Shown: positions 15,019-48,534 of the stretch, piece after piece
Position numbering within the stretch: the first letter of the stretch is position 1
Layout: each line of letters begins with the position of its first letter
Program-made: the position numbers and the translations under genes
Notes under the pieces: generated by a model
Told to the model about the DNA's origin: nothing
Seen by the model: only the letters and a program-made list of their open reading frames with translations
Databases searched by the model: none
Assembly: GCA_049999805.1 (NCBI GenBank)
Contig: JBNGIO010006150.1
Span: 291,952-355,951 of the forward strand
DNA: 64,000 nt
Source: Folioceros fuciformis
Taxonomy: Eukaryota
Direction: 5' to 3'

Positions 15019-15270
15019 TTAAAGAACACCACACTGCGCATGACTGTCCACGAGGCAGGTGGTGACCACTACTAAAGTCATTCGAAGGCGCTCTTTCCAC
15101 AAGTAGGGAGTATAGCTGCCTACCCATCTGTAAGGCACCAGTGCTTCCACAGAAGGCAACCAAGAGCAACATGAGGCTCCCGCCACCTGCATGCGTTCAT
15201 ACACGGCAAGTGCCTCTTCACAAAGTCCATGCTGAATATGTAAGGGCAGACTGTCCATGCCACGCATTCT
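15019..15270 (-). pseudogene. PLS-class PPR gene fragment
   Basis: HIQHGLCEEALAVYERMQ, FCGSTGALQMGRQLY and TCLVDSHAQCG in shifted frames match PLS-PPR consensus motifs (AC...GAL..GRQIH; LVDMYAKCG). Confidence 0.65.
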
Positions 15271-15284
15271 GTCAGGCCAAGCAC

Positions 15285-15750
15285 GGCATCAATCCTCTAG
15301 TCCCCACAATTTAAATGCGTACATGCCCACCAGGCAGGGCCCAGATGTCATTGAGGCAGCAGCGTCCTCACCGTTTTGATGCACTCTCAGCTTGGAACGA
15401 CAAACGGATTATTCCTCTTTCGCATATGCAAGCAATATGACGTTCTCCCCGTGGCAGGCAAGATATGTGTATCCAAGGTGCAGTATAATGGCCGATTTGG
15501 AGGACCCAAAAAGCGCATTCTCTTTCAAAGCGGTTGGTCCAGACCAACGGCGTTCTCTCCTGATGAGTCCAAAGGAAGGGATGACGATGAATGGGCTAGG
15601 AAACTAGCTGAGCTGAGGTGAGCTCAGGTGCTGGGTCCTACCGTCCATAACCCTGCCTACTGAGCCTACCTTCCATGTAAAAAAGGCATCTTTGGTGCAA
15701 GCAGCAGTGTAGCAAGAGTGACGTCGTGTTGTGACAAGTTTGGGGGGTGA
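15285..15750 (+). promoter_or_regulatory. Conserved upstream module of Roco copy A
   Basis: Homologous to 22268-22740 and 30127-30420 (ttttgatgcac...gggatgacgatgaatggg..aggaaactagctgagctgag...); regulatory role is inferred. Confidence 0.45.
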
Positions 15751-16019
15751 GAATTCGAAGGAGGGTTGGAGGCAGCCGGTTAGAAAAGGTCAGCCTTTCC
15801 CGTCCGCGATGCTGGCCCAGTGAGCCCACAAGACCTAGGTACGGTTTGATAAAAGACTGTACGCAGGTATGGAGGAGGAATATCCACTGGTCACGGACAG
15901 AGAGAGAGCGTGGGGAATGGGAAAAGCCAAACACGCTCACGCCTTGACGAGTGGAGAGTGAGTAAGACCTGTCAGCTCTCTTGCCGGCTACCACACAACC
16001 CTCTCGTCTCGGAGATTCA

Positions 16020-16335
16020 AGAGACTTTGTATGGTGTCCCAATCCTCCCCCAGTGCGTATGCTGTGAGGTTGTCGGCCCCTAGTCTACTCGTGTCTGGTG
16101 TTCGAATTGGGATCTTCCCCAAGTGTGTGTGCTGTGAGGTTGATGTCCCATAGCCTATCCTTGTGTGGTCTGCCAATCCTCCTCGAGTGTTCGCTGATGA
16201 GGCTGCTGTCCCTTGGCCTATCCTTGTCCGGTCTCCCAATCCTCCTCGAGTGTGTGCGTGCGAGGTCGCTGTTTCCTAGCCTATCGTTTTCTGGTGTCCC
16301 AGTCCTCGAGCGGTGCTGTGAGGTTGCTGCCCATT
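16020..16335 (+). repeat. ~63-bp tandem repeats immediately upstream of Roco copy A
   Basis: Unit gcctatccttgt..ggtctcccaatcctcctcgagtgtgtgc.gtgaggttgctgtcc, about 5 copies. Confidence 0.8.
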
Positions 16336-16406
16336 CTACGAAACGGATGTTACATACAATCCATTCATCATAATGGCTTGCATTGGGAAGCGCAGGTTAG
16401 CACAGC

Positions 16407-19400
16407 ATGGCGGAGCAGGAGGACTATGACGGGCGCGAATTGCCGGATGAGCTGCAACAGCTGCTACAAGATTTGGAACGGAATGCCTTGTCCAAACTCC
16501 CGCACTTGGGCAGAATGGAGTATGGCGATTTCTTCAGAAAGGGAGCGTCAACGAGGACGGATGGCAGGCACTGGCGAGTGCGCAAGCGGGTATTAACAGC
16601 TACTGGCCAGTGCCGCAGTCTCCGCGGCCATCTGTCCATCTATCAGGATTGGGGGATCGGCATCGCTCGGGAGGATGAATGCGCGGTTCTGTTGGGGGGC
16701 CTGGCATCCAACCCTTCCCTGGAATCTCTTTATCTGGGTTGGTGCAAAGGCTTTGGAAGGCTGGCGGGTGGCAAGGCCCTGGGCCAGCTTATTGCTTCCA
16801 GTCGCAGCTTGCGACGGCCGGAGGCACCCGAGATTGGGGTTGATGCCGCTGGACTTGGTGCCCTGGTCGAAGGCTTCGACCAAGATTCTGTCCTGGAGTA
16901 TTTGGACCTAAAGGGGAACAGAGTGGGAGATGGCGAAGGGGCACAACACCTGGCTCGCATGCTGGCCACCGCTCCCCGTCTCCATGCTCTGTATCTGCGT
17001 GGGGTCGGCATGGATGAGGAGGGAGCCCAGTGTATTGCAAACGCACTTCCGCTCTGTGCCTCGTCCCAGGAGCTTTATTTGGATGATAAATATCCGGGTG
17101 GGCGTAATGAAGGTAGGGGTTCCGTACAGGGCAACCTGGGGCCCATGAGCGCTGTGTGCAAACTTGCTTTCACCCGCGGTGATGCTGATGCCGCCATATC
17201 TAAGGTCACCAAGCTGATGTTGGACATCCGGAACAGCGAGGAGCCAGGCCTGGCCAACGCGCTGGCCGGAATGTTGCCCAACGATTGCATCACGGAGCTG
17301 ATCAGCAACCATTTTGCAGTCAAAGTCGATCTGGACGCCTGGCGCCACAACTCCACTCTCTCCAAACTTGAGTTGTTCAACTATGACGGTGACGAGACGT
17401 TAATTGAATTTTCTATGTCGTTTCTGGAATGCAAAGCATTACGTATCCTGGCTTTGAGGCAGATGGTTGGCCCTCTTTCATGAAAGCGTTGGTGCCGTCT
17501 TTGGGGAAGCTTATGTCTTTGAATGAGCTCAACATTCTGGATTGTGATGAACTCGATGATGACCTCTCCGGAGACTTGATGCAGTCCGTCCGAGCCAGCA
17601 GTACGTTGTGGAAGATCAACATGCAGGGCACAAAGTGGGCTTGGAAGGGAAATTCGGCCATCATCCGCGCAACGTTGGCACGAAATGTTACTCAAAGCGA
17701 CCACTGGCGGCGCATTGCGGAGGAGGAGGAGAAGGAGGAGGAGGACTGGAGCGCGATGCCGGCTGAGCTGCAACAGCTGGTGGAACATCTGGAACGGAGT
17801 GTCTTGTCCCAACTCCCCCACTTGGACGATAGGCCGTACGGTGATTACTTCAGAGAGCGAGAGTCTTGGTGTATGGATGGCCACTACTTCGGAGAGCTTG
17901 GTCGTCGTAGGAGGCACTGGCGAGTGCGCAAGCGGGTGTTGACAGCTATTAGCCAGTGTCGCAGTCTCTGCGGCCACCTGAGCATCTCTGACGACTGGGG
18001 AATCGGCATTGCTGAAGACGATGAATGCGCGGTTCTGTTGGGTGGCCTGCCATCCAACCCTTCCGTGGACACTCTTTATCTGTATCGGTGCCAAGGTTTT
18101 GGAAGGCTGGCGGGTTGCAAGGCCCTGGGCCAGCTTATTGCGTCCAGTCGCAGTTTGCGGCGGCTGGAGGTACCTGAGATTGAGCTTGATGCCGCGGGAC
18201 TTGGTGGCCTGGTCGAAGGCTTCAGCAGAGATTGTGTCCTGGAGCACTTGGACCTGGAGGGGAACAGAGTGGGAGATGGTGAAGGGGCACAGCACCTGGC
18301 TCGCATGCTGGCCACCGCTCCCCGTCTCAATGTCCTGTATCTGGGTAGGATCGGAATGGATGAGGCAGGAGCCCAGTGTATTGCAAACGCTCTTCCGCTC
18401 TGTGCCACGCTCCGGGAGCTTCGTTTGGATGATAGATATCCGGATGGGAGTCATGCAGGTTGGGGTTCCGTACAGGGCAGCCTGGGGCCCATGAGCACTG
18501 TGTGCAAACTTGCTTTCACCCGTGCTGGTGCTGATGCCGCCATATATGGGGTCACCAAGCTGTCATTGCGGATCCGGAACAGGGAAGAGCTGGCCAGGCC
18601 TGGCCGACGCGCTGGCCGGAATGTTGCACACCAACGATTGTATCCTAGAGCTCGTAATCAACCGTTTTGCGGACGAGTACGGCCTGAACGCCTTGCGCAA
18701 CAACTCCACCCTCTCCAAACTTGAATTGGTTCACTACTACGATGACTTTCCACTGTCTTGGAGTGAATTTTCGATGTCGTTCCTGGAATGCAAATCATTA
18801 CGTATCCTGACTTTGAGGGGGATTTATTGGCCCTCTTTCATGGAAGCGTTGGTGCAGTCTTTGGAGAAAAATACGTCTTTGAATGAGCTCAACATTCTGG
18901 GTTGTCGGACACTCGACGATGATCTCTTCAGAGACTTGATGCAGTGCCTCTAAGTCAACACCACTGTACAGAAGATCGACATAAGGGGTACAGACTGGGA
19001 CCGGGAGGGCAAGCAGGCCATCATCAACGCAACGTTGGCACGCAATGTTACTCACAGGGCCTGCTGATCCTCGCTTTAGGACGGGCAAGAGGCTGTGAAG
19101 CCCAGGGTCGGGCTCCTTTTCTTGTGCGGTGCACCTTACGCAGGGGAGACCACTCTCCGCACCACCATGATTACCGCATGGCGCGCATTCCAACCACACA
19201 CATGGACAGGAACCGCATCACCAAGCCATGTCCGATTCTGGGAGCAACTGTCTGTAGTTTGGGGATGGATATGTTCCTGCAGCTGTTTCGGAACTGTCCT
19301 TAGCGTGTGGATGGATACTCTCACCAGAACGGAAGGCATAGAAATTGAGGTGCTGCGCAACGACGATGAGAAGGTAGTTACCATCTGGGATCTGGCTGGA

Positions 19401-20087
19401 CAAGCTTACTACCGAGCTGTGCAAGACTACTTGTTCCCCAGCTTTAACCATACTTGTGTCTTCTTGTTTATGTTCAACCCATTTGATGCCCACAAGCTTG
19501 GCGGACCCCTCCCGTTTACTAAAATGCTGCGGACAAGTTCTGAAACGGCTTCAAGTTTTGGCCTAGATTCATCCACTCTAATTCTCGCAACGTGGGTTCT
19601 TGTTTGCCTTGGGTATTTGCGGCTGTCACTCTTAAGGATCGGATGGAGGATCTGCAGGCTAAAATACTAGTAGATCTGCTGCAACCAGTTGTGGACGAGT
19701 TGGCCAAGGCTTTTGAGGAGGTACTTCATATTAGGACAAAGCCTGTATTCTTCATGGATGCTCGATCTGAGCAGGCTATGAAGACCTTGCTGCAGAAGCT
19801 GTTCCATTCAATTGGAGAGCTATTTGCAGTTCCTCTGTTTTGGGAACCCAACGCATGTAACCGATTGAGTGCTGTTTTGACTCAGTGGGTATCTCAAAAT
19901 CCAACTGAGCCTTTTGTGACCAAGGAGCGATGCAAAAAGTTGTTTAACGAAGATGATGAGCATCGCGTTGAAGAAGATGATGAGCAACGCGTTGAATAAA
20001 GTGATCACCTACGCCTTCAATTAAGTCTTGCCTATGTGCACAATTCAGGCAGGGTCATGTAGTTCCAAGATGCAGATGCTGTGGTGG
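16407..20087 (+). pseudogene. TORNADO1-like Roco pseudogene, copy A: LRR module 1 + LRR module 2 + ROC + truncated COR
   Basis: ORFs 16407-17483, 17429-18724, 18510-18953, 19095-19670 and 19592-19999 are all homologous to 23287-27426; frameshifts; TAA at 18951; P-loop GKT changed to GET (GAG 19146-19148); breaks off after gatgcagatgctgtggtgg at the duplication junction. Confidence 0.92.
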
Positions 20088-22270
20088 TGCCAAGGAGGCC
20101 GCCTGCTCGTGTCCTTCCCTGTAGGAGCTGGAGAGCTGGGCAGGGCAAACAGCGACACGTTGGCATCACTCGCAACCTCAAGCCATCAATGTCGTCATCA
20201 AAACTTCATGAGCCAACTGTCAATGCAACGGACTGTTTGATGTCTCACAACACGAGCCTGGAAATAGAAGCAGCTTGATGGCGGGAGAAGCAGACTGCTG
20301 CTCTTCACCAATTCCCGCGCACTCACCGTACCACGGCATCCGGCTTTCAGACTTTCCCCGGACTCCAATGATAGTTGAATGCTTCTGCACTCCAGCCACG
20401 CCGAGAGTCGAGCCACTACTCATTTTCTTCAGCTCCACTTGGGCCAAGCTACCTTCACATGGTGCAGCTGGATGCCAGTTCCTAGGTCATCAGTCCAGTT
20501 TCGGGGGGACGATCTCCAAGGGGTTGGGGAATTCTTACTCTACTTCTTCCTCCTCATGGCGACGAACAACAACAGGATGCAGTTTGCGCGGATGCTGAAT
20601 CTCCTGCCCCCGATGTGTGGGCCTGTGTAGGCACCATACACTCTCTCCTCCGTAGGTTAATGTCTCGCGAGGACGGAACAGCCAAGGTACGCCTGTGTCG
20701 GAGCCGGATACTGTACCAACAATCGAGATAATCCAAAGCCGAAGGCGAATCCCCAAACGAAACCTATCCGCAAAGCGTGATCTGGCATTGTATCCAGATA
20801 CCCTGCTCTGTCTTGCTATCGTTGCTGCCAGATTGTCTACCCTGTCTGATGTGGTTGCAGCCAGATAGTCAGGAAATAACGGAGAAGACGTTATCCATTA
20901 AACTTGAACTTTGAGGGGATTCAAGCAAATGTTGCGGGAGTCGTTTCGTTGACAACAAGTTCAGGCACCAATTTCCAGCCCGCTACAGGACGGAAGCTCG
21001 AGGGTGTGAGTTGACTGTCTGCATTGGAAGAACAGAGGTCCAGGCTCTATTCTTTGATTGAATGCAAGCTTCAAGGATGGCAACAAACACCATTTCCCTG
21101 ACTTCGTGATCGAAAAGGGTCGGTGATAAAAGTAGATGCAAACGAGACGATTCACTAACCATTCGAGCAAACACTTTCCGAAGCGAAACACAGTAAGTTG
21201 AAGTCCCCAAGACACTAAGATGGCTGCCAAATCCAACCTATGCGTATGATGAGGTCACCAAGACTTTCCCATGGCTCCGGTTGATGTTCCGGCCAAAAGT
21301 GACTCAATTGAGTGTTCCGGCCAATTTGCAAGGACAACATTCCGATGAACACAAACATCGGACATGAGACTGTCTTTCTGGCCGTATGAAGAGTCGCTGG
21401 TATCTATTTCCGAGAACTGCGCATTTTTGTGTTTGAAGCAAGCAGTTCTCGGCATACCAAAGTCCTTCCTCACCGTATTAAGTGTCGCTGGAACCGGTTT
21501 CCAGGAACTGGGCATTTTTGTGCTTGAAGCAAGCAGTCCTCGGCATACCAAAGCCCTTCCTCACCGTATTAAGTGTCGCTGGAACCGGTTTCCAGGAACT
21601 GGGCATTTTTGTGTTTGAAGCAAGCAGTCGTCGGCATACCAAAGCCCTTTACTTCCCCTTGTCGATAGTCATTCAGCTTGCTCGCCAAGCATTGAGGAAT
21701 TAGGACTTTCTTGGATTTGTTCCGCTGTGGTTGAAGGAAAGCATTCCCCAAGATGCTCAATGCTCCCGCTTTTCTTGTTGGCACACTGCAGAGGAGTGCT
21801 TTTCGAATTTTAAAAGAACTGTGAAAGGCTGCTCCTGGTCATCGACCTGCTAGTCATTTCAGGCCTGTACCGACCCTAAGCTTTAAGACCATGACTGTAG
21901 AACACAGAGGATCCTGGTATTGACTCAACTTGGTCCTTGATGATGGCAGGGCATGCTAGAGGGACTTCAGCTTGTTGCAAACTTGAACACCAATTCTCAC
22001 AAAATATCGTCAGAAATTCGTGCCAAGAACTGAGGCAGCTCTAGGAATAATTAGAAATGCTGGACGAGTCTGGACTGCAATGGATCAAACCAAGAATACT
22101 TGTAAACACAACTAGCGCAACTAGGACGATGGCTGGAGAAGTCACAGTGGATGAAGGGAGGGAGGGCATGGCCTGTACCCTAGCTGTTCTTGTTTTTGGG
22201 AGCCTCCCAAAAACAGGCCTCGACACTGTGACAAGTCTTGATACATGGTACTCATCGCTGCCGGCAAGGC
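20088..22270 (-). pseudogene. Degraded unidentified gene, copy 2, with a hydrophobic N-terminal segment
   Basis: Paralogue of 13505-14900; upstream part reads SPAIVLVALVVFTSILGLIHC (possible membrane anchor); many stops. Confidence 0.4.
21390..21650. repeat. ~91-bp tandem repeat x3 (single copy in the paralogue near 14790-14860)
   Basis: gtcgctggaaccggtttccaggaactgggcatttttgtg.ttgaagcaagcagt..tcggcataccaaag repeated. Confidence 0.88.
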
Positions 22271-22740
22271 ATGGCATCAATCCTCTAGTCCCCACAATTT
22301 AAATGCGTACATGCCCACCAGGCAGGTGCCAGACGTCATTGAGGCAGCAGCGTCCTCACCTTTTTGATGCACTCACAGCTTAGAACGACAAACGGACGGT
22401 TACTCTTTCGCGTATGCAAGCAATCTGACTTTTCTGTCTGTGGCAGGCAAGATACAGTACGTGTATTCAAGGTCCAGTATAGTGGTCGATTTGAAGGAAT
22501 CCAAAGGGCATTCTCATTCAACGCGGTTGGTCCGGACCAACCGCGTTTTTCTCCTGCTGAGGCCAAATGAAGGGATGACGATGAATGGGCTAGGAAACTA
22601 GCTGCGCTGAGCTGAGCTGAGCTCAGGTGCTGGGTCCTACCGTCGACAAACCTACGTGCTGTACCTACCTTCCAAGTAAAGGCATCTTTCGTGCAAGCAA
22701 CCGTGTAGCGAAAGTCCATGCCGTGTTTTGACAAGTAGGG
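22268..22740 (+). promoter_or_regulatory. Conserved upstream module of intact Roco copy B
   Basis: Homologous to 15285-15750 and 30127-30420. Confidence 0.45.
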
Positions 22741-22956
22741 GGAGAGAATTCAAACGAGAGTTGGGAGCAGATAAAATACTGTAGGCTGGTACGGAGGAGG
22801 AATATCCACTGGTCACAAAACAGATAGAGAGCGTGGGGAATGGGAAAAGCCAAGCAGGCTCACGCCTTGATGAGTGGAGAGTGAGTGAGGCCTGTCAGCT
22901 CGCTTGCCGGCTACCTCTCAACCGTCTCGTCTCCCGGAGATTCAGGAGTCCACGTC

Positions 22957-23212
22957 CCCTAGCCTATCCTTGTCTGGTGTTCCAATCGGTGTCCTCCCCG
23001 AGCGTGTGTGCTGTGAGGTTGATGTCTGATAGCCTATCCTTGTGTAGTCTGTCAATCCTCCACGAGTGTGTGCTTGGAAGGTTGCTGGCTGCTGGCCTAT
23101 CCTTGCCTGGTCTCCCAATCCTCCTCGAGTGTGTGCTTGTGAGGTCGCTGTCCCGTAACCTGTCCTTGTCTTGTGTCCCTATCCTCGAGTGTGCGCTGTG
23201 AGGTTGCTGCCC
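22957..23212 (+). repeat. ~63-bp tandem repeats x4 upstream of the intact Roco gene
   Basis: Same unit as 16020-16335; lies between a GTGAGT donor-like site (22881) and a CAG acceptor-like site (23270). Confidence 0.8.
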
Positions 23213-23286
23213 CTGCTACAAAACGGATGATACATACAATCCATTCATCATATTTGCTTGCGTTGGTCAGCGCAGCTTAGCACAGC

Positions 23287-26200
23287 ATGGCGGAGCAGGA
23301 CGACTATGACTGGCGCGAGTTGCCGGATAAGCTGCAACGGCTGCTGGAGGATCTGGAAGGGCACGCCTTGACCGAAGTCCCCGACTTGGACGGAGAGGAG
23401 TACGGCGATTTCTTCAGAAACGAAGCTTCAAGAAGGAAGGATGGCAGGCGCTGGAGGGTGCGCAAGCGGGTATTAACAGCTATTGGCCAGTGTCGCAGTC
23501 TCCGCGGTCACGTGTGGGTCCGGTCGAAGTGGGAAATCGGCATCGCTCGGGAGGATGAATGCGCGGTTCTGTTGGGGGCGCTGGCATGCAACCGTGTCCT
23601 GGAATCTCTTGATCTGGGTGGGTGCAAAGGTTTTGGAAGGCTGGCGGGTTGCAAGGCCTTGGGTCAGCTTATTGCTTCCAGTCGCAGCTTGCGACCGTTG
23701 GAGGCACACAGGATCGGGCTTGATGCCACTGGACTTGGTGCCCTGGTCGATGGCTTCAACCAGGATTCTGTCCTGGAGTATTTGGACCTAAGGGGCAGCA
23801 GAGTGGGAGATGGTCAAGGGGCACAGCACCTGGCTCGCATGCTGGCCACCGCTCCCCATCTCAATGTCCTGTATCTGTATAGGATCGGCATGGATGAGGC
23901 GGGAGCCCAGAGTATTGCAAACGCACTTCCGCTCTGTGCCTCGCTCCAGGAGCTTCGTTTGGATGATAGGTATCCGGATGGGAGTTATGCAGGTAGGGGT
24001 TCCGTACAGGGCAGCCTGGGGCCCATCAGCACTGTGTTGAAGCTTGCTTTCACCCGTGCTGATGCTGAGGCTGATGCCCATGCCGCCATATCTGCGGTCA
24101 CCAAGCTGACGTTGGAGATCCAGAACAGCGAGGAGCCAGGCCTGGCCGACGCGCTGGCCGGCATGTTGCGCACCAACAATTGTATCGAGGAGCTTATCAT
24201 CAACGGTTTTGCTGTCAAGTTTGGCCTGGACGCCTGGCGCCACAACTCCACCCTCTCCAAACTTGAGTTGTTCGACTATGACGGTGACCAGTCGTTCTGT
24301 GAATTTTGGATGTCGTTTCTGGAATGCAAATCATTGCGCACCCTGACTTTGTCGCGGGTAAAGTGGCCGTCTTTCATGCAAGCGTTGGTGCGGTCTTTGG
24401 AGAAAAATAAATCTTTGAATGAGCTCCGCTTGCTTAATTGCTACCACCTCGACGACGAGGTCTTCAGAGAGTTGATGCAGTGCCTCCAAGTCAACGACAC
24501 TTTACAGAAGATCGACATAGAGGGCACAAACTGGGAGTGGGAGGGAAAGCAGGCCATCATCAACGCAACGTTGGCACGCAATGTTACTCACAGGGCCTAC
24601 TGGCCTTTGCTTTCGGAGTGGCAAGTGGCTGTGAAGCCCAGGGTCGGGCGCCTTTTCCTGTGCGGTGCACCTTACGCAGGGAAGACCACTCTCCGCACCA
24701 CCATGATCACCGCATGGCGCGCATCACTCAACCTGTCGCATCGTGTCCGCCTCCGGGAACAACTGTCTTTAGCTTGGGGATGGATACGTTCCTGCAGCCG
24801 TTTTGGAGCTGTCACCAGAACGGAAGGCATAGAAATGGAGGTGCTGCGCAACGACCATGAGATGGAACTTACCATCTGGGATCTGGCTGGACAAGCTCAG
24901 TACCGAGCTCTGCAGGACTACTTGTTCCCCAGCTCCAACCAGACATGTGTCTTCCTGTTCACATTCAACCCACGTGATGCCCTCAAGCCTGGGGAACCCC
25001 TTCTGTCCGATGAAATGCTGCTGGTCAAGTTCAGGAACGGCTTCAAGTTTTGGCTTAGATTCATCCACTCTAATTCTCGCAACGTGGGTTCCTGTTTGCC
25101 TCGGGTATTTGTGGTTGTCACTCATATGGATGATATGGAGGATCTGTACGCTAAATTACTTGTCAGTCTGCTGCAACCAGTCGTGGAAGAGTTGGCCAAG
25201 GCTTTCGAGGAGGTACTTCTTATCAGGACAACGCCTTTCTTCATGGATGCTCGATCTAAACAGACTGTGCAGCCTTTGCTGGAGCAGGTTTTCCAATCAT
25301 TTCAAGAGCTATTTGCGCTTCCTCTGTTTTGGGTCCCAGAGGCGTGCAACCGATTCAGTGCTGGTTTGACTCTCTGGGTATCTCAAAATCTAGCTCAGCC
25401 TATTGTGACCAAGGAGAGATGCAAAAAGTTGTTTGAAGAAGATGATGAGCAACGCCTTCAAGCAATTCTGGCCTATCTTCACAATGCAGGCCGGGTCATC
25501 TGGTTTCAAGATGCAGATGCTGTGGTGGTTAATCCACACTGGATCAGTCATTCGTTCCTGGGCCGCCTCATTCATCTTTTAACTGGACCGTCTTCCTTGG
25601 GGAGATCCCCAGACCGTGGATTTGTTGCTGAAGACCTCCTTAAGGACACCTTGGCTGGGATCCTGAAGGACACGCAGGCGGCCGACAGGATTCGTGTTGA
25701 AGATTTGGTATCATTGATGATGAGACTAAACTTGTGCTATCGAGATGATGCGAATCCAAGGCCTGGATTCTTCGTCCCCTTCACCTTGGATAACGCCGAA
25801 GGCAAAGCTCTTCAAGGGAAACGACAGTTGGACTGGAAGGGTGGTGCGGCGTCCAAGTACAATTACGTAGGGAGGCAGCTACAATGCCGAGATGAAACCA
25901 ACACATTTCTCGGTCCAGGCTTGTTTCCAAGATTCCAAGTACGTTACCTTGTGACCTGTCTCTCTGTTGCTAGTGATTTATCCTCTCTGGGGTTTACTGA
26001 CATCGCCAACGGTTGTGCATTGCAGGTCAAGTTACGACAGATCTTATTCGATGGGCTCTGCGGTATGCAGTCTCATCAATATAGCATTGCACGTAACTTG
26101 ATCAGATTTAACTATGACGGCATGGACGTATTTTTGGAGAGCAGTGGGGATATTGGGGCCGAGACCGGGGACATTGGGGATCGTGTTGACATTTTGATGA

Positions 26201-27426
26201 GGTCACTCAAGAGCAAAGACGAAACGATCCAGTTTCTCCAGAAGCGCATTGTTGCAGAACTAAGAGCATTTTGTGCCTCTCCTGAAGGTAGTCCTGGAGT
26301 TGAACTAGTAGAAGGGATCATCAGGACTGACTGTGTGGAGAACCTCACACTCTGCATTCACCGACACAATCAATCGGTTCTCATACAGCATTTGATGAAG
26401 TGCTTTCTAGATCACAAAAGTCATCCAGGGCACAGTGCCTCCGGCTCGGAGTCGTCCGATTATCGATGGTGCTGGCCAGAAATGCCTGAAGCCGGTCTAT
26501 CCCTCGTACACGAGAAAGCCAGTGATCTGTTAAGTAGCGAAGAGGTGGAGTCTGCTTTGCAGGAGTGTAGGCCCCGTTCATCCCTCGACGCAACGAGTGG
26601 CCCTTCAGCTGGAACAAGTCAGCCACTGGTACCGCCTATACTCAAGTCAGGGAAGGAACTATCATACCCTAACGAAAGGGTTAAAGGAGGTCACCGGAGA
26701 GGTCTTGCAATGATAGTCAGCATGGAAGACCACAGACGTGGAGGACAGGTAGACAGAGGGCAGCTTAAAGCTCTCTTCCAGATGTTGAAGTTTCATACAG
26801 ATATCGTGGTGAACAGTCCTAAGGAAGGGACATCAAGGTTGAAAGGCATTCTTAGGAATCCTCGCCTAGCTGAAGACGACTGCTTTCTGTTTTGCGTGAA
26901 CGCCTTTGGTGGGACTGATGAAGACGGAAGAGAGTATGTTTGCTCAGGTGAAGCAGTGAATGCGGAGAAACTTTATGTTGAAGAAGATATTTTGAAGCCC
27001 ATCGGTGAATGCAAGTATTTGGCAAACAAGCCTAAGGTGGTTGTCATAAATGCTTGTCGAGGCACTGGCAGTCTGGTCAGAAGCATGAAAGCACAGGGGT
27101 CGGGCCCCGCCAACCTTGCCACGACCAGCAAACCCGAGGGGTCAGACGTTGAGGGAAGCCAAGGTCCCAGCAAGAGAATCCGACACTTGTATCACGCGAA
27201 AGATTTTCTCATCGTCTTCTCTACCAGTCCTGGAGATTTATCCTTCAGAGATGTTCAGGAAGGCACAAACTTCATCATAGCTTTCGTGAGAGCCATCATT
27301 AAGCACTCTCGAACCGAAGATGTGATGAGCATTCTAACAAGAGTGATTGGGAAGGTCACCAAAATGCAGGGAGTGCAGTGTCCCCAGCTCCTCAGCTCAC
27401 TCACGGGAAAGCTGTACTGGTCTTAA
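23287..27426 (+). CDS. TORNADO1-like Roco protein: RI-type LRRs - ROC GTPase - COR - caspase-like (peptidase C14 p20+p10) domain; probable 87-nt intron 25939-26025
   Basis: Open 1379-aa frame. LRRs (LEYLDLRGSRVG, LNVLYLYRIG, LQELRLDD); G1 CGAPYAGKTT (24661-24690); switch I RTEGIE; G3 WDLAGQ; G4 VVVTHMD; TRN1-like FWLRFIHSNS, FPRFQ|V, GIIRTDCVENL; C-terminal KPKVVVINACRG, DFLIVFSTSPG..SFR..GTNFI, QCPQLLSSLTGKLYWS. Confidence 0.93.
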   Translation: MAEQDDYDWRELPDKLQRLLEDLEGHALTEVPDLDGEEYGDFFRNEASRRKDGRRWRVRKRVLTAIGQCRSLRGHVWVRSKWEIGIAREDECAVLLGALACNRVLESLDLGGCKGFGRLAGCKALGQLIASSRSLRPLEAHRIGLDATGLGALVDGFNQDSVLEYLDLRGSRVGDGQGAQHLARMLATAPHLNVLYLYRIGMDEAGAQSIANALPLCASLQELRLDDRYPDGSYAGRGSVQGSLGPISTVLKLAFTRADAEADAHAAISAVTKLTLEIQNSEEPGLADALAGMLRTNNCIEELIINGFAVKFGLDAWRHNSTLSKLELFDYDGDQSFCEFWMSFLECKSLRTLTLSRVKWPSFMQALVRSLEKNKSLNELRLLNCYHLDDEVFRELMQCLQVNDTLQKIDIEGTNWEWEGKQAIINATLARNVTHRAYWPLLSEWQVAVKPRVGRLFLCGAPYAGKTTLRTTMITAWRASLNLSHRVRLREQLSLAWGWIRSCSRFGAVTRTEGIEMEVLRNDHEMELTIWDLAGQAQYRALQDYLFPSSNQTCVFLFTFNPRDALKPGEPLLSDEMLLVKFRNGFKFWLRFIHSNSRNVGSCLPRVFVVVTHMDDMEDLYAKLLVSLLQPVVEELAKAFEEVLLIRTTPFFMDARSKQTVQPLLEQVFQSFQELFALPLFWVPEACNRFSAGLTLWVSQNLAQPIVTKERCKKLFEEDDEQRLQAILAYLHNAGRVIWFQDADAVVVNPHWISHSFLGRLIHLLTGPSSLGRSPDRGFVAEDLLKDTLAGILKDTQAADRIRVEDLVSLMMRLNLCYRDDANPRPGFFVPFTLDNAEGKALQGKRQLDWKGGAASKYNYVGRQLQCRDETNTFLGPGLFPRFQVRYLVTCLSVASDLSSLGFTDIANGCALQVKLRQILFDGLCGMQSHQYSIARNLIRFNYDGMDVFLESSGDIGAETGDIGDRVDILMRSLKSKDETIQFLQKRIVAELRAFCASPEGSPGVELVEGIIRTDCVENLTLCIHRHNQSVLIQHLMKCFLDHKSHPGHSASGSESSDYRWCWPEMPEAGLSLVHEKASDLLSSEEVESALQECRPRSSLDATSGPSAGTSQPLVPPILKSGKELSYPNERVKGGHRRGLAMIVSMEDHRRGGQVDRGQLKALFQMLKFHTDIVVNSPKEGTSRLKGILRNPRLAEDDCFLFCVNAFGGTDEDGREYVCSGEAVNAEKLYVEEDILKPIGECKYLANKPKVVVINACRGTGSLVRSMKAQGSGPANLATTSKPEGSDVEGSQGPSKRIRHLYHAKDFLIVFSTSPGDLSFRDVQEGTNFIIAFVRAIIKHSRTEDVMSILTRVIGKVTKMQGVQCPQLLSSLTGKLYWS

Positions 27427-28149
27427 CCACTCCATTCTCTGCACATGCCTGGTTGGCTAGCGTGAGGAGCGTGTGGTCAGGTCCTGTAGTGCCTTCCGTC
27501 AAGTGTCAGGTATCAAGTGTCTCTCTAGCTGCATACTGTACTGCCTGTTTGTTGGGGTGGCGAACTGCTTCTGATACGACCTTCTCGCGTCTCCTCCCTT
27601 TCTATGCCTGTTTGGCAAGAAGGTCCTCTCACAGTGGCCTGGTGTGGATGAACAGATGATGGGTCATGGAGGCGATGTGTAGGGATGGAAGATCGTGCTC
27701 TGTTCGTACACAGCTGGGAGCTCGTGGTTTCGACACGAAAGTCCAAGTTTGGGGTCTTCTGGTGTTGACATTGTTGTGTACACCAGCGTGAGGATGTCCC
27801 TCTCTGAATTGGCGTTGGGAGCTTGTGCCTTCATGTCACAGTGACACCAGACAGCACGCAGCGGTATCTCCGAAGCATTGTCATAACTGGATTAGGGTTG
27901 CTCGCCCGTGAAGGGGCCTTGTCGCGTGTTTTGGGTTTGGGGCTGTCGCCGTCGTTTATCCTGGTTTGGACCACGTCCTGCACTCTATTCCTCTTTCAAT
28001 AAAGCCCGGGGTTTAGGGTTTAGCGAGTCCCAATCAGCAGCAGCCAAGAACCGTGTTGCGTTGTACCGAGAGCTGCTTGTAGTGGCATATCTGACATCTC
28101 TTGGCCGGCGCCGGTTCAGATTCAAGAAATAGTAGACCGACCGGGTTGG

Positions 28150-29900
28150 TGCTGTGTTGAGCTCTGTTTCCGTATGTGCAGTCACCGGGGGAATTGGCAG
28201 GACGTCCAGAAGCGGATTTCAAGTAAATTCTCGTGGATGAAACTCCAGTTGCCTAATGCACAGGCACAGGTTTCCAGTAAGTTGTTCTTGTCGGGATTCC
28301 TCAGGATGTGAAAGGGAATCGTGAACGGGGCGTGTGTGGGTGTTAGTACGCAGTGGTTTCCATTAGCCGGGCTGTGCGACTCGTTTCGGCTTGCTGCACA
28401 GCAATATGTAAAGCGTTTCCTCCGAGATGCAGATTCTCATCGCTGATGGCTGGCTGGAGAAGAGAGACAACTTGAACGGGGCGTGTGTCGGTGTTGGAGG
28501 GCAGATGTATCATTAGCCGGGCTGTTGGACTCGATTAGGTTATGTGTACGGCGCGGACTCCGTGAGGCTGAGCTGATTCTCATGCCTGATGGTTGGCTGA
28601 AAAGAAAGACAACTTGGCCAGTCGTCAAGCCAACGTGTCTAAATTCCTCCCGACTCGTGTCCACTTCGTACCCGGCCAAACGCACAGTGTTTTGCGGTCT
28701 TGTAGGGCAGAGATGTGGAACATGGATGCCTGCCTTCCAGCAGAACGGCCCATTGGTCCTGGCCTGTCTTGCACTGCCACCCCTCCAACCGGATGCCTTG
28801 ACCCCTCCCATTGAGTTGAGTTCATGACCGGGGAATGCCAATGGCATCATGCGCAAATGCAGAGGTGAAGGGGAATTCTCCTCTACGACCTACCCCTACC
28901 ATGTCCAGCAGACTTCCAAACAGGCTGAAATCGGAAAGGACGACTCGAGTCTATCCGGAACAGGATCCTTGAGGGGGTCACAAATTGAGGGTATATCTTT
29001 CCCCAAGGTGGTGGATGGGACTGGTTCTAGCTTGATATTTGGGGAGGCATGAGGGTACTGGGCGCATTAACGTGCCAACTGCTAAACAAGATCAACATTG
29101 GAGGCCGCTGGAGGAGGTAACCTTATATTCGTTTTGAACTATGAACGATAAAGGCCATAGCCATTACCCAAAAGCTATGGATCTACATAGGGCTGTGCAA
29201 TGTTGAGCTCTGTTTCCGTTTGTGTAGTTACCGTGGGAATTGGCGGGAGCTCCGAAAGCAGATTCGAGTAAATTTTCGTTGATGAACCTCCAGTTGCCTA
29301 ATGCAGTGGTTGATTTCAAGTAGGTCGTTCATCTCGGGATCCTTCAGGATGTCAAGGGGAACTGGGAACGGGACGCATGGCGGTGTTGGCTGTGCGACTC
29401 GTTCCGCCTAGCTGAATAGCAATGTGTAAGGCGTTGCCTCCGAGATGCAGATTCTCATCCCTGATGGCTGGCTGCCAAAGTGAGACAACTTGGCCAGTCA
29501 GCGAGCCAACTTGTCTTTCCTTCTGACTCATGTCCAGTTTGTACCGGGCCAAAGGCATAGTGCTGTGTTGATGTGGAACATGGTTGCCAGCCTTCCAACA
29601 GAACGGCCCATTCGTCCTGGCCTGTCTTGCACTGCCACCGCTCCAATCGGATGCCTGACGGCTAACATGAGTTCATGACCGGGGCAACGCCAATGGCATC
29701 ATGCTCAAATGAGGAGGCGCAGAAGGAATTTCTTCTACGCCCTACCATGTACAGCAGACAATCTCTGTTCCTGCCTTCCAAACAGGCTGAAAGTGGAGAG
29801 GACGAGAACTTATTCAGAACAGGACCCTTTCTACCTGGGGAATTCGGCTGACCCCCGTCCATAAATTGAGGGTTTGTCTCCCGACAATGTGGAGGATGGG
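28150..29900. repeat. Two diverged direct repeats (~28155-29010 and ~29200-29900), probably decayed minus-strand coding sequence
   Basis: Shared blocks tgttgagctctgtttccgt, ctccagttgcctaatgca, cagaacggcccatt.gtcctggcctgtcttgcactgccacc, gagttcatgaccggg..a.gccaatggcatcatgc. Confidence 0.8.
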
Positions 29901-30126
29901 ACTGTTTTTTCTCTCCTTGTTTGGTCCTTGTTTGGCACACACTGAATAGGATAATTACATAGTTTGTGTGAATGGGAGAATTGCATAGTTTGTATGGGTA
30001 GTGGACGTTAGTTTGTGTATCTCCTTCCCTGCGCTCTGTCGACGAATCGCCCTCTACATTCATTCAGCATGCTCGCCTCCATGATTACGATAGCTGAGCT
30101 AACCTGAGTACAACGGGCGGCAGACC

Positions 30127-30420
30127 TTTTGATGCACACACAGTTCAGAACGACATACAAACTGTTTCTCATTCGAATGAGCAATCTGACTTTTCTCCCG
30201 TTCACAGGCATGATGTAGGATTTGAAGCAACCCAGAAGGGCAGTCTCATTGGACGGGATGACGATGAATGGGGTAGGAGCCTAACTGAGTTGAGCAGAGC
30301 TCAGGTGGCGGGATCCTACGGTCCATAAACCTACCTTCCATATGAAGGAAGGCATCTCTCCTGCAAGATGCAGTGTTGCAACAATCATTTTCTGTCCTGT
30401 TGTGACAAGTGGGGGAGGGA
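30127..30420 (+). promoter_or_regulatory. Third, more diverged copy of the Roco upstream module
   Basis: ttttgatgcacacacagttcagaacgaca...agcaatctgacttttct...gggatgacgatgaatgggg. Confidence 0.45.
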
Positions 30421-30507
30421 AGGAAAGTGGAAGCAGCAACTTAGGAAACTTTTGCCTCAAAAGCTCCTCAATGCAACCTTGGACCAGGACACCAGATCCT
30501 CAAAAAC

Positions 30508-32345
30508 ATGGAAGCGGACGAGATTCGTGCTGAAGATCTCGTATTATTGATGAAGAGACAAAACTTGTGCTATGAAGATGATGCGAATCCTAGCCCTGGA
30601 TTCTTCGTTCCCTTCACCCTGGATGACGCAGAAAGTAAAGGTCTGCAATGGAGACGACAGTTGGTCTGGAAGGGTGGTACAGCGCGCAAGTACACCTACT
30701 TAGGGAGGCAGCCACGACGCCGAGAGACTGGAAGGGTGGTACAGTGCGCACGTGCAACTACTTATAGAGGTGGCCACAATGCCGAGATAAAGGAAGACGT
30801 TTCTCGTCCAGGCTTCTTTCCAAGGTTCCAAGTACGTTACCTTGTGAGGTCTGTGACATTCCGCTAGTGATATATGCTCTCTTTGCTTTCATGCCATGGC
30901 CAATGGTTGTGCATTGCAGGTCAAGTTACGACCTTGTTTGATGGACTCGACGGCATGCAGTGTCATCAGTATAGCATTGCACGCAACTTGATGAAATTTA
31001 ACTACTTTGTTATGGACGTATTTTTGTAGAGCAGTGGGGATATTGGAGAGGAGACCGGGGACATTGGTTATCGTGTTTGATGAGGTCACTGAAGAGCAAA
31101 GACGAAACGATCGAATTTCTCCAGCAGAGTATTGTTGCGGAACTGAAAGCATTTTATGCGTCTCCTGAAGGGACTCCTGGACTTGAGCTAGTGGAAGGGA
31201 TCATTAGGACTGAGTGTGTGGAGAACCTCAGAGAAGGAACCATCATATCCAAAGTCAGTCACAGGGACCGCCTCTACTGCAGTCAGGGAAGGAACCATCA
31301 TATCCAAACGAAAGGGTGAAAGCAGGTCAGCGGCGAGGTCTTGCAATGACAGTCAGTATAGTAAAAGGCAGAGATGGAGGACAGCTGGACAGAGGACGAC
31401 TTGACGTGGTTCTCCGCGGTGTGCCCTTGAAGTTTGAGATTGCTTGTGTGGTGGACGATGTTAAGGAATAATAATCAACGTTGGAGCACCTTCTCAGGCA
31501 TCCTGACTTAGAAAAGGACGATTGCTTTCTGTTTCGCGTTAATGCTCACGATGCGAGTGACGAAGATGGTAGAGAGTATGTTTGCTTAGGTGAAGCAGAC
31601 AAGGCGGACAAGCTTCATGTTGAAGAAGATATTTTGAAGCCCATAGCTGGATGCGGGAAGTTGACAAACAAGCCTAAGGTGGTTGTCATAAATAGTTGTC
31701 GAGGCACTGGCAGTCTTGCCAAAAGCGTGAAAGCGCAGGGTTCAGGCACCGCCAACCTTGCCACTAGCAGCAAAGCCATGGGCTCGCACGTTGAGGAAAG
31801 CCAGGGTCCCAGCAAGAGAATTTGACCCCTGTATTATGCGAGCGACTTTCTGTGTTTTGCGTCAATGCCCATGGTCGAACTGAAGAAGCTGGTAGACAGT
31901 ATGTTTCCTTAGGTCAAGCAGACAAGGCCGAGAAGCTTTATGTTGAAGATGATATTGTGAAGCCGATCGCAGAATTCAGGTATTTGGCAAACCAGGCAGG
32001 TGCTTGGCATAAGGTGCGAACAATACAGGTGCTTGTCATAAATGCCTGTCGAGGCACTGGCAGTCTTGTGGAAAGGATGGAAAAGCAGGGTCAGGCACCG
32101 CCAGCCCTGCCACTGGCAACAAAGCTGACGGGTCTGGTGTTGAGGAAAGCCAGGGTGCCAGCACGAGAATTCGACTCCGTCATTCTTTGACCGACGTTCT
32201 CGTGGTTTCTCCACGAGTCCTGGAGGTAATACTTGTGGAGACGTCAAGGAAGGCACAAACTTCATCATGGCTTTCATGGAAGCCATCATTGAGCACTCTC
32301 TGATAGAAGCGTGATGTACATTCTAGCAAGCGTGATTCGCAAGCC
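30508..32345 (+). pseudogene. Roco-caspase pseudogene, copy C: distal COR + duplicated caspase p20 segment + p10
   Basis: ADEIRAEDLV..NLCYEDDANPSPGFFVPFTLD, EGIIRTECVENL, QRRGLAM, FRVNAHD..KPKVVVINSCRG, then FCVNAHG..INACRG, then VVSPRVLEV/GTNFIMAF; multiple stops and frameshifts; same intron (30832-30919). Confidence 0.92.
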
Positions 32346-32573
32346 CAGGGGCATGGAGGTTCCGCAAATAACCGTACAAGGATGGGAGGAAAGATTCCAG
32401 ATTCCAGGGTCCCGAGGTCGATAAAAAGCTCCCGTGGTCTTATCATTCCATGCCCTCCATATGCCTGGCTAGCGTGTGGCCAGCTGGGGCCTGTTGTGCT
32501 GTCAATCAAATGTCAGGTATCGACTTCAGCTACATATCGATTGTTTGTCGGTGACTGTATCAAACTGCATCTG

Positions 32574-33814
32574 AGGCCTACACATCGATACCCGATGGAA
32601 GTTAATGCCTGCCACAGCCCGTGCGGTACGGCTGTGCCAGGCCTTACGGCGCCATTTCGTTTCGCCCAACGACGCGGCCTTACCAGTTCTCATCCTCCGT
32701 CCCGTGAGTTGAACGCTGTCTTGCAGTGTGCAGTCATGCGATGGTAAACCATGCGTGCATGAACCATGTGCATGAACCATGCTCGGATCACGCGATAATA
32801 AACCAGGCGCTTATCCTGAGAGTTCCCGGTTACGATGAACTTAATGTGTTGAGAGCGGAAGGAACGCTAATGGAACGCTGGCTTTGAGAGCACGTTATCT
32901 TTTTGTCTCGCTGTTTCCTCTAGAAGCGTTGATTGCTTGTCTATCATACCTTGATGGAAAGCTTACAACAAGATGGACAAGCCGGTGTGAAGCACGCTCG
33001 GTTTCAATGAAAGGTGACAGACATATGAGCAAAGGAAGCCTTTGAAAGGCATGCCATCTATTTCTCTACCCGCTTTGTCCAGATGAGTCAAATGCTTTCT
33101 TATCATACTTCAATGAAAAGCTTACAACAAGACGGACAAGCCGGTATGAAGCGCGCTAGGTTCCGATGAGAGAAGACGGAGATATGAGCGAAAGACACCT
33201 TTGAAAGGCCTGTCATCTTTTTGTCTACCAGCTTTCCCCAGATGAGTCAAATGCTTTCTTATCAGGCTTTGATGGAAACCTTATAACATGACGGACACGT
33301 CGGTGTGCAGCACACCTGGTTTCGATCAAAGATGAAGGAGATATGAACCGAAGAAGCTTTTGAAAGGCACTTCACATTTGTCTGCCCGCTGTCTCCTGAA
33401 GAGTCAAATGCTTCCCTATCATACATCGATGAAAAGCTTACAACGAGACGGACAAGCCGGTATGCAGGCTACTTGGCTTCGATCAAGGACAACAGAGCTA
33501 CTACGAAAAGCTGCCTTTGAAACAATGGTCACAGTTTCCAAGTCACTACTTTTTTCCTTCTTCCTTGGCACTTCATCAAACCCTCTTAACCGTTGCAAAC
33601 TGTTTGAACTTCTTTCGCAGGCAGCTCTTGTAATGGCATTTGTGACCAAGGTGTCTCTCTCGGGCTCAGCTCACGGACGGAGGATGAAAACTGGTAAGGC
33701 CGCGTCGTTGGGCGAAACGGAATGGCTTTTGGCACCAGCCGTATGGCCTGGCACAACCGTACCGCACGGGCTGTGGCAGGCATTAACTTCCATCGGGTAT
33801 CGATGTGTAGGCCC
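32574..33814. mobile_element. Non-autonomous TIR DNA transposon (hAT- or Mutator-like) with ~140-bp terminal inverted repeats
   Basis: 32575-32710 (ggcctacacatcgatacccgatggaagttaatgcctgccacagcccgtgcggtacgg...) is the reverse complement of ~33667-33813; possible decayed 8-bp TSD tgcatctg / tgcaccca. Confidence 0.78.
32925..33520. repeat. ~158-bp tandem repeats (3-4 copies) inside the TIR element
   Basis: gagtcaaatgctt.c.tatca...gaaaagcttacaac.aga.ggacaagccggt.tg...tttgaaaggc recurring at ~32930, 33085, 33244 and 33401. Confidence 0.85.
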
Positions 33815-41230: not shown

Positions 41231-41337
41231 GGAATAAGCGCATGAGAGTGTACAAAATCCCTCGGAGCAGCTGCCGCTGCTGTGCCAGAGTCGGCTTTGA
41301 AACAGCTGCAGGAAACTGAATGGTCTGATCTGTCAGT

Positions 41338-47600: not shown

Positions 47601-48534
47601 TCCGGCAGTCGCATGGCCAATATACACACCTGGAACGGGGCAGTATTTGGCGGACAGTGATAGTGATGATTTCCAGCCACGAAGTCGGAAGCGAAGCCGC
47701 CGCTGTCCTCCTGATGAGGAGCCCTTTCCTCGAGGACACGGTGGCAATGGTAGAAGTCCTGAGACACCTGTGTCAAGCAACGGGCGTGGTACTTGTAGAG
47801 ATCTTGAAACACCTGGATCAAGTAACAGGCGTGGTGATAGTAGAGATCTTGAAACACCTGGGCCAAGCAAGAGGAGACGGAAAAATGGATATTTCAATAC
47901 CAGCCCGAGTGCTTTGCCCACAAAGCAGAACAAGTCATCTAATCTTGGTGGTGGGAATGATGGACTACCCTTGGTGCCACTAGGAGGTGGGAATGATGGA
48001 ACGCCTGAGCTGTCGAAACGTCTGTCTCGAAAAAAGAGACTCAGGGCAGCTCTAGAGAAGAAGCTGGGGCGTGTCGTCAGTAAGCGGGAATGGAAAATTT
48101 ATTATGCGGAAGAAGTCAAAGGAAAGGCACCAACCAACTCCCCGGGTGATGGAAATTCGCGAAAGCGGAAACGGTCGTCAAACAGCGGGGAACATATTAA
48201 GGATGAAGATCACGGTAAGGGTCAAACTTCGCTTCATAGTAGGAAAGATGATGGGGGATCATTGTTGCACATGAAAAGCAGCAGTAAACAGTTCAACGAG
48301 CATGGCAAGCGCCAATGGGATGGTTCACACAGTGGAAGTAGGCATTCAGGTCTTGCCCGTCACGTTGCAAGCAATCCCTCCACGGAGAGGGCCACGCAAG
48401 GAAGTAGATATCCCCGGGTGAGAGGTGGTGCAACACGTTCAAAGGGAGAACATAGCGAGCCGTATGTGCAACAGGGCACTGAACGGAGAGTAGTACAGTA
48501 TACACCTGGTCACAAGAAGATCAAGTTCTTGTAG
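44678..48534 (+). CDS. TRL: TRF4/5-like (PAPD5/TENT4) non-canonical poly(A) polymerase, multi-exon
   Basis: Exonic motifs SPLLQLHK, VHVFGSFATGLYLPTSDVD, ARVPIVKF, ELNEVYSGGIGSYAL, EDPQ|TPENDIGKNSY; many short GT-AG introns; basic low-complexity last exon; start codon uncertain (44678 or 44734). Confidence 0.9.

Follow-up and report, generated by a model that had tools for sequence, protein, structure and literature searches.

The DNA analysed here is a stretch of 64,000 nucleotides from Folioceros fuciformis (contig JBNGIO010006150.1, positions 291,952 to 355,951 of the forward strand), which we refer to as the window. It carries, at 23287..27426 on the plus strand, a single open frame of 1379 amino acids (4137 nt of coding sequence, intronless; P0001), whose product joins leucine-rich repeats (LRRs), a Roc GTPase, a COR region, a linker and a caspase-type domain in one chain. 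The stop-to-stop frame opens at 23281, so that the Met at 23287 is the earliest possible start. The N-terminus is shared with a paralogous copy upstream (copy A, described below), and the C-terminus coincides with the end of the Pfam caspase profile. An earlier note on the same DNA, made from the letters alone, had claimed one uninterrupted open reading frame (ORF) for a plant LRR-Roc-COR receptor fused to a caspase; the frame is indeed uninterrupted, and the single-chain LRR-Roc-COR-linker-caspase architecture is real.

The modules follow one another on the plus strand. LRRs of the ribonuclease-inhibitor (RI)/NLRC type occupy 23464..24606 (about aa 60-440, limits approximate). They are followed by the Roc (Ras-of-complex) GTPase at 24646..25206 (about aa 454-640), recognized by its motifs, by the Pfam Roc profile and by alignment to the Roc of P0002, a protein of the liverwort Marchantia paleacea. 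The COR (C-terminal of Roc) region begins with COR-A at 25408..25779 (aa 708-831; Pfam PF16095, profile positions 22-140 of 143) and continues as a COR-B-like region at 25804..26406 (about aa 840-1040, limits approximate), which lies within an unbroken BLASTP alignment with P0002 reaching to aa 1148. Next comes a Ser/Pro-rich linker at 26407..26697 (about aa 1041-1137) that has no Pfam family match and a low predicted local distance difference test score (pLDDT) over aa 1100-1122. The chain is completed by a caspase-type Peptidase_C14 domain with p20-like and p10-like halves at 26698..27417 (aa 1138-1377), delimited by Pfam, PDB searches and a structure model. The motifs lie where they had been claimed: G1 GAPYAGKTT at aa 460-468 with the K466 codon at 24682-24684, RTEG at aa 511-514, G3 DLAGQ at aa 532-536, the G4-like THMD at aa 612-615, and INACRG at aa 1254-1259, in which Cys1257 (codon 27055..27057, plus strand) takes the catalytic-Cys position. 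The catalytic-His position, in turn, is taken by Phe1207, encoded by TTT at 26905..26907 (plus strand).

A caspase fold for the C-terminal domain, likewise part of the earlier claim, is backed by several lines of evidence. Pfam assigns Peptidase_C14 (PF00656) to aa 1138-1377 over the complete profile (1-233 of 233) with 94.5 bits against a cut-off of 21.4. A PDB sequence search returned 142 matches at E ≤ 0.01, and the best 60 of these 142 are caspases save two LRR matches, headed by Drosophila Dronc (4.1e-13) and followed by caspases-7, -8, -1 and -9. The AlphaFold2 model of aa 1100-1379, built on an 11-row alignment, has a pLDDT of 78, a predicted template modelling (TM) score of 0.77 and six core strands; two stretches are disordered, namely the linker and an intersubunit loop at aa 1261-1295. 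A Foldseek search of the PDB with this model yielded 484 or more matches at E ≤ 0.001. Among the fold matches listed all are caspases or CED-3 (target-normalised TM 0.67-0.78), including caspases-8, -6, -7 and -9 (0.7-0.78) and the caspase-8:cFLIP structure 3h11. A language-model atlas also places the domain beside chordate caspase clusters (0.94-0.95). Neither metacaspases (C14B) nor paracaspases occur among the best 60 of the 142 PDB sequence matches or among the fold matches listed. A metacaspase assignment was rejected on this ground, that is, on the listed matches and not on a direct comparison with a metacaspase structure. Judged by sequence and model together, the domain is best described as caspase-type and animal-like (C14A-like), not metacaspase-like.

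The relatives of the domain are distant. An exhaustive HMMER search of 1.84 billion representatives, with aa 1100-1379 as the query, yielded 907 matches at E ≤ 0.001, none of them at 50% identity or above. Closest are some unnamed proteins along with two from Marchantia in which an alpha/beta hydrolase is joined to a caspase domain (34-40% identity), and animal caspases with DED or CARD come next. The more distant matches that we examined comprise DED/CARD animal caspases, multi-caspase arthropod proteins and one GT4-caspase protein. The last of these, P0143 (770 aa), has a 'GT4-conflict' glycosyltransferase joined to a caspase domain, and the arthropod proteins (from a mite, a katydid and a crayfish; P0018, P0020 and P0088) each have three matched caspase stretches. 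In a quick tree the window domain falls into an eight-row clade with P0012, P0014, P0015, P0017, P0019, P0021 and P0023 (Shimodaira-Hasegawa-like approximate likelihood ratio test support 97). The tree was made from local phmmer envelopes, of which 114 of the 151 matches, those aligned over at least 170 query positions, were kept; its 65 rows are the first 64 by identifier plus the window domain, it is unrooted and without a metacaspase outgroup, and the length filter removed P0046, P0013, P0016 and P0130. Three further searches gave the following: a word-index search with aa 1120-1379, restricted to proteins 758-2414 aa long, had no match, which is not evidence of absence; a metagenome scan with the caspase alignment gave four short loci (L001-L004), 0/4 with a Roco body upstream; and a single peptide pattern of low sensitivity matched 14 stretches in 185,579 prokaryote species genomes, none of them a relative.

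The earlier note overlooked that the catalytic His is replaced. In the alignment to Dronc, CVNAFGG of the query lies over MTHGN, which puts Phe1207 at the catalytic-His position, and INACRG lies over the catalytic Cys, a column that holds Ala in the second Dronc chain, 2fp3_A. We examined these columns in a 14-row alignment (A1) of the window domain and 13 relatives. His is found in 12 of the 13 relatives, the exception being P0021 with Tyr, and Cys likewise in 12 of 13, the exception being P0019 with Gly. Arg1150 is invariant in all 14 rows and Arg1321 is present in at least 90% of them; we take these two columns to be the Asp-binding (S1) pocket of caspases. The S-F-R motif of the window domain aligns with S-W-R of caspase-7. 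In other words, the conserved columns of A1 are intact in the window domain except for His, and of the catalytic dyad Cys1257 is there while the His position has Phe1207. Two caspase pieces in a neighbouring pseudogene (copy C) read VNAHDA and VNAHGR and so keep the His; their codons are CAC and CAT, compared with TTT in the intact gene, a difference of two substitutions. Since His is kept both in the copy C pieces and in 12 of 13 relatives, the ancestral state is, on these alignments, His, and the intact copy has lost it. The Phe also makes an active 'receptor-protease' doubtful for the intact copy, which is most likely proteolytically dead or very weak as far as its residues tell.

P0019 (Cys to Gly) and P0021 (His to Tyr), both unnamed records within the bryophyte-type caspase clade, have lost one dyad residue each. 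Pseudo-caspases may thus be a recurring feature of that clade, to judge from the aligned residues.

That the LRRs are RI-like, as had been claimed, agrees with matches to NLRC3 proteins, which are confined to the LRR part and cover 16-23% of the query, and with the solved chain 5irm_A (deposited as 'Uncharacterized protein'), which matches aa 90-232 at E 1.6e-6 in the PDB sequence search; Pfam LRR_6 matches the repeats only faintly. Pfam finds neither NB-ARC nor NACHT in the 1379-aa protein at E ≤ 1, which sets it apart from NLR/STAND proteins. The closest named protein is Mapa_010739 of M. paleacea (P0002, 1408 aa), aligned by BLASTP over aa 348-1148 with 29% identity (E 4e-90), and its Roc passes Pfam with 27.5 bits against the cut-off of 27. 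In the language-model atlas, which provides a lead only, the clusters nearest to the whole protein are Tornado 1/COR-domain proteins of Streptophyta that carry COR-A or COR-B (scores 0.84-0.85). The body is classed here as a TORNADO1-like Roco from homology and motifs, with the Pfam cut-offs narrowly missed. The TRN1-like body of the earlier note is thus upheld as homology but not as identity. A TORNADO1 orthologue was rejected, as P0002 and the window protein are 29% identical in an alignment that stops at aa 1148 and have unrelated C-termini; going by the sequences, the body is a divergent paralogous family and not TRN1 itself. The accompanying statement that the usual C-terminus of TORNADO1-like proteins is not a protease agrees with P0002, in which Pfam finds no Peptidase_C14 and whose C-terminal ~250 aa are no caspase domain.

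The junction of the two halves recurs outside the intact gene. Copy C, 3 kb downstream, also has the order COR-B to caspase. When the Roco body was compared by BLASTP with the collected caspase relatives, three of the matches listed had a homologue of aa 929-1038, the tail of COR-B, directly before the caspase domain (P0019, E 2.9e-13; P0130, E 1.7e-5; P0012, E 1.6e-4). Because copy C, P0012, P0019 and P0130 all repeat the COR-B-then-caspase order, the junction is considered genuine. P0130 and P0301, which fall into one cluster, are ORFs on Trinity-assembled transcripts from the hornwort Nothoceros aenigmaticus; both read SINAHGG, and P0301 also reads VNACRR. They are transcript-level evidence, in a relative, for COR and caspase in one frame with the dyad intact.

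A tblastn search of the window with the intact protein revealed three further copies, all on the plus strand. Copy A (15256..17707) is a truncated paralogue whose coding part, 16407-17707, corresponds to aa 1-439 (73% and 56% identity) and has one frameshift and no in-frame stops. Copy B (17744..20089) is a pseudogene covering aa 8-748 at 66-68% identity; it is disrupted by two frameshifts and six in-frame stops, and its P-loop reads GAPYAGETT, in which the Lys is replaced. Copy C (30496..32308), also a pseudogene, covers aa 792-1344: caspase pieces (aa 1111-1344, in part present twice) come directly after COR-B (aa 792-1020), the linker is mostly absent, and frameshifts and in-frame stops are present. 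At the DNA level, 15256-16614 repeats 22244-23494 with 82-87% identity, and the repeat takes in about 1 kb of 5' flank (15256-16406 in copy A). Because the DNA repeats include this flank and are without inverted repeats, the copies are, on sequence grounds, attributed to tandem segmental duplication; transposon capture was dropped, since a search for inverted repeats or mobile-element ends around the cluster found 0 inverted pairs.

Assembled contigs point to many more copies. Those of runs X1 and X3, from two studies, were placed on 15500-33500 at 85-100% identity in numbers of 1234 (X1) and 702 (X3), and the X1 contigs spread over identity classes of 99% and above (269), 95-99% (303), 90-95% (390) and below 90% (272). 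Most of the depth is over 24515-27519. We read this spread as probably reflecting many diverged paralogues, although contigs cannot yield a copy number. Joints such as that from 26344 to 26593 in contigs of both runs may represent paralogues with a shorter linker. The short contigs of X3, a run presumed to be RNA, cover 29 of 30 bins, intergenic ones included, and are therefore uninformative on transcription, and no contigs of runs X5 and X6, from other organisms, were placed on 15500-33500. The intact gene does not stand alone but belongs to a family that has duplicated locally and that has relatives in other bryophytes.

Selection differs along the protein. Compared with the window copies (Nei-Gojobori), the ratio of nonsynonymous to synonymous substitution rates (dN/dS) of the intact gene is 0.81-0.87 in the LRRs, 0.62-0.68 in Roc and COR-A and 0.39-0.48 in COR-B and the caspase domain. 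Since the comparison partners are pseudogenes, the low values of the C-terminal half imply constraint on the intact lineage. The LRRs seem to evolve almost freely, a pattern familiar from receptor genes, though partial decay would also be compatible with it.

The earlier note had envisaged two caspase domains brought together, and the homodimer predicted for the domain agrees with this part of it. The score is 0.66 compared with 0.01 for the best control, a pass that may, however, stem from the predictor's memory of solved caspase dimers; of proteins solved as pairs, 21 of 30 passed the mark applied, and of those solved as single chains, 0 of 23. The interface is symmetric and consists of the last beta strand, residues 266-276 of the domain, i.e., aa 1365-1375. 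At least 73% of contacts are shared between the runs, and the pLDDT of the partner is at least 74.

Taken together, we favour, with a probability of roughly 0.6, a reading in which this is an intact bryophyte-grade gene of a lineage-specific, duplicating family, in which a TORNADO1-like Roco protein gained a C14 caspase domain in place of the TORNADO1 tail, and in which the His-less copy serves as a regulatory or scaffolding pseudo-caspase. It is the Phe at the catalytic-His position that leads us to propose the regulatory pseudo-caspase. The LRRs would sense or autoinhibit, in analogy to the bacterial LRR-AP-GTPase-COR-effector systems and to the logic of apoptosomes and inflammasomes. Roc-COR, which is known as a nucleotide-dependent oligomerisation switch in other Roco proteins, might set the oligomeric state in the same manner here. 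The caspase domains, as the output, are predicted to pair through their last beta strand. The His-less copy could then act as a non-cutting partner or scaffold, much as cFLIP does beside caspase-8, pairing with itself or with His-bearing paralogues, or it might hold Asp-containing peptides. GTP switching, control of the dimer, a role in immunity or cell death and the role as a regulator are all proposed by analogy.

Several observations weigh against this interpretation. The Pfam Roc match covers aa 516-559 with 23 bits (E 9.7e-5) and remains below the curated cut-off of 27, and COR-A with 32.3 bits (E 1.1e-7) remains below 35.3. COR-B is not found by Pfam in the 1379-aa protein. A PDB profile search with the Roc-COR part gave only weak Rab and Arf matches (best E 0.003), and the Roc-COR structure model, made from a two-row alignment, has a pLDDT of 30.6, which leaves the COR fold without structural support. 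The Roc motifs that had been claimed are themselves present. The gene is known here from genomic DNA alone. The link of the family to immunity rests on analogy, and TORNADO1 is a developmental gene in Arabidopsis. Some residual activity is conceivable despite the absent His. As the dN/dS partners are pseudogenes, the constraint cannot be dated relative to the change from His to Phe. Finally, with pseudogenes as neighbours and a catalytic residue lost, the intact copy itself is possibly decaying.

It is tempting to extend the favoured reading beyond this gene. Bryophytes, at least hornworts and liverworts, might keep genuine C14A-like, dimerising and probably Asp-directed caspases as death or signalling effectors of Roco receptors whose clustered genes multiply and decay in the manner of NLR genes, which would constitute a third, hitherto unrecognised class of intracellular receptors in plants and a one-chain analogue of the inflammasome, with His-less copies as FLIP-like brakes or co-activators. 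We consider this broader proposal tentative, with the odds rather against it.

The earlier note went further for this very gene: binding of a ligand to the LRRs would drive a Roc-COR dimer switch that activates two competent caspase domains, making the protein an active single-chain receptor-protease. We regard this as unlikely. The architecture it presupposes is confirmed, Cys1257 and both conserved Arg are retained, a caspase-type homodimer is predicted (with the caveat of memory given above), and relatives with the same junction and the His exist. The Phe at the catalytic His, however, is two nucleotide changes away from the CAT and CAC of the neighbours, and the CVNAFGGTDEDG segment holds no other His. 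Ligand sensing, control by GTP and activity are proposals only. What stands of the claim is therefore the architecture, not the active protease, and the mechanism would seem to fit the His-bearing relatives better.

Quite as improbable, in our estimate, is that a tandem cluster is dying out and that the gene, one of its young members, is decaying with it; the gene would have no present function, and its frame would still be open because its inactivation, of which the loss of His was the first step, is recent. All three neighbours are truncated or disrupted by frameshifts and stops, the gene lacks a catalytic residue, the LRRs have a dN/dS of 0.81-0.87, and knowledge of the gene comes from genomic DNA alone. 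Yet the 4137-nt frame is wholly open with all domains complete, the ratio in COR-B and the caspase domain is 0.39-0.48 even against neutral pseudogene partners, and the conserved columns are intact apart from His. Moreover, single dyad losses recur (P0021 with Tyr, P0019 with Gly), as expected of tolerated pseudo-enzymes.

Least probable among these alternatives is a TORNADO1-like role in development or trafficking, with the caspase-like domain as a peptide-binding or oligomerisation module that has no part in death or defence: homology links the body to plant Roco proteins of the TORNADO1 type and the protease dyad is incomplete, but the named homologue is only 29% identical, the local duplication, the pseudogenes and the many diverged contigs (1234 and 702 over 18 kb) fit a family of fast turnover better, and the equivalent bacterial architectures are read as conflict systems in the part of PMC8195603 available to us.

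Of the known systems, TORNADO1/TRN1-like Roco proteins as represented by P0002 resemble the window protein in their RI-type LRRs, GxxxxGKT, DxxGQ and THxD motifs, COR and similar length. They differ, besides the 29% identity, in that the window protein has a caspase domain where the C-terminal ~250 aa of P0002 are without C14, and in that the window gene lies in a cluster of duplicated, decaying copies.

The design as such has a published precedent in bacteria. According to the accessible part of Kaur, Burroughs, Iyer and Aravind 2021 (PMC8195603), bacterial AP-GTPase(Roc)-COR proteins have fast-evolving N-terminal LRRs and a C-terminal slot that is filled by at least 24 domains, caspase included, and the LRR-AP-GTPase-COR proteins are interpreted there as conflict systems switched by nucleoside triphosphate (NTP). 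The order of modules in these LRR-AP-GTPase-COR-effector proteins, as far as that source presents it, is the same as in the window protein, whereas the Roco body of the latter is plant-type and its caspase domain is closest to metazoan caspases. The novelty claimed earlier therefore holds for plants, for which we found no description in the open literature, and not for the architecture in general, which was already in print for bacteria. In the portion of PMC7159879 that was consulted, caspase domains in effector position have often lost catalytic residues in bacterial conflict systems; in one class the proportion is about 70%.

Among eukaryotes, brown-algal LRR-Roc-COR (ROCO) proteins have been proposed as fast-evolving pathogen receptors (PMC3341825, PMC11378527, both consulted in part). 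The portions consulted mention no caspase domain in them; they belong to another lineage and, unlike the intronless window gene, owe their diversity to exon shuffling. Caspases are said to be animal-only, with plants having metacaspases, in the excerpts of PMC10896300 and PMC12521494, and a study of bryophyte NLRs mentions caspase, in the text that was accessible, only within 'caspase recruitment domain' (PMC11218826). In the open literature we came across no account of caspase-type domains in plants, bryophytes included, or of a plant Roco-caspase fusion; supplements and subscription journals, which may mention them, lie outside this coverage.

The best sequence and fold matches of the domain are animal initiator caspases (Dronc 3j9k/2fp3, caspase-8, caspase-9) together with cFLIP (caspase-8:cFLIP, 3h11). 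The window domain shares with animal caspases the six-stranded core, the SxxPG...S-x-R signature of p10 and the predicted last-strand dimer, and with cFLIP the lack of a full catalytic dyad. In contrast to animal caspases, the window protein has no CARD or DED, is fused to a Roco GTPase instead and has a plant host, and Asn rather than Gln precedes the Cys (INACRG). It also differs from cFLIP, which lacks the catalytic Cys as well, in having lost only the His. Plant metacaspases (C14B) have the same PF00656 and caspase-hemoglobinase fold as the window domain. They are, however, monomeric and eight-stranded, whereas the window domain keeps the two Arg, presumably of the S1 pocket, and is predicted to form a caspase-style dimer.

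The alpha/beta-hydrolase-caspase proteins of Marchantia (P0023 and P0046: MARPO_0108s0037/Mp_6g00900, 807 aa, and Mapa_003498, 1113 aa) belong to the same caspase clade, have the domain at the same C-terminal position and are also from a bryophyte. The window domain is 31% identical to each of them in A1, and P0023 groups with it in the tree. Their partner is an alpha/beta hydrolase and not LRR-Roc-COR, and they keep both His and Cys. Liverwort proteins of this kind (MARPO_0108s0037, Mp_6g00900, Mp_6g00860 and Mapa_003498) have at least one alpha/beta-hydrolase domain together with the same caspase-type C14. Six identifiers of the Marchantia polymorpha genes, though not that of M. paleacea, were looked up in the searchable literature without a match.

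The window gene, together with related genes of a hornwort and of Marchantia, shows that land plants have caspase-type domains, and among the matches listed Dronc and caspase-8 are nearer to these domains than any metacaspase is. In the window protein, such a domain is joined to receptor-type LRRs and a putative Roco GTPase switch. If the His-bearing members are active, the link between NTP-switched receptors and caspases, familiar from apoptosomes, inflammasomes and bacterial conflict systems, would become testable in plants, and the TORNADO1-like Roco proteins, whose biochemistry is obscure, would gain an output domain that can be read. As a naturally occurring pseudo-enzyme, the His-less copy would lend itself to work on regulation through heterodimers. 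We consider the relevance for plant cell-death and Roco biology high, tempered by the missing His and by a gene known from genomic DNA alone.

The surroundings of the gene are those of a plant genome. A Nodulin-like/NFD4 transporter of the major facilitator superfamily is encoded in a single-exon stretch at 41329-43239 (plus strand; Pfam 272 bits), and further single-exon ORFs encode a C2-domain protein (37027-38310, minus strand) and a thioredoxin-domain protein (49345-50313, minus strand). Among named proteins, those most similar to the NFD4-like protein all come from bryophytes, namely Marchantia paleacea (44% identity), Riccia fluitans (42-44%) and Ceratodon purpureus (42%), then Sphagnum species and Calypogeia fissa (41-42% each), with seed plants following at 36-40%. 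The window therefore derives from a bryophyte-grade land plant that is distant from every annotated genome in the database. Contamination or a misjoin, against which the earlier note had argued, was rejected, as both the Roco body and the neighbours are plant-like, the flanks being bryophyte-like, and as the junction recurs.

Four other ORFs are without a Pfam family at E ≤ 0.01: 58362-60557 (plus strand, 731 aa), 3021-4310 (minus strand, 429 aa), 47275-48534 (plus strand, 419 aa) and 5859-6782 (minus strand, 307 aa). Tandem repeats are also present near the cluster. Between copy B and the intact gene lie three copies of a 91-94-nt unit at 21374-21649 (84% identity), and just 3' of copy C, at 32890-33500, there is an array of a 159-nt unit in at least 3-4 copies with 74-79% identity.

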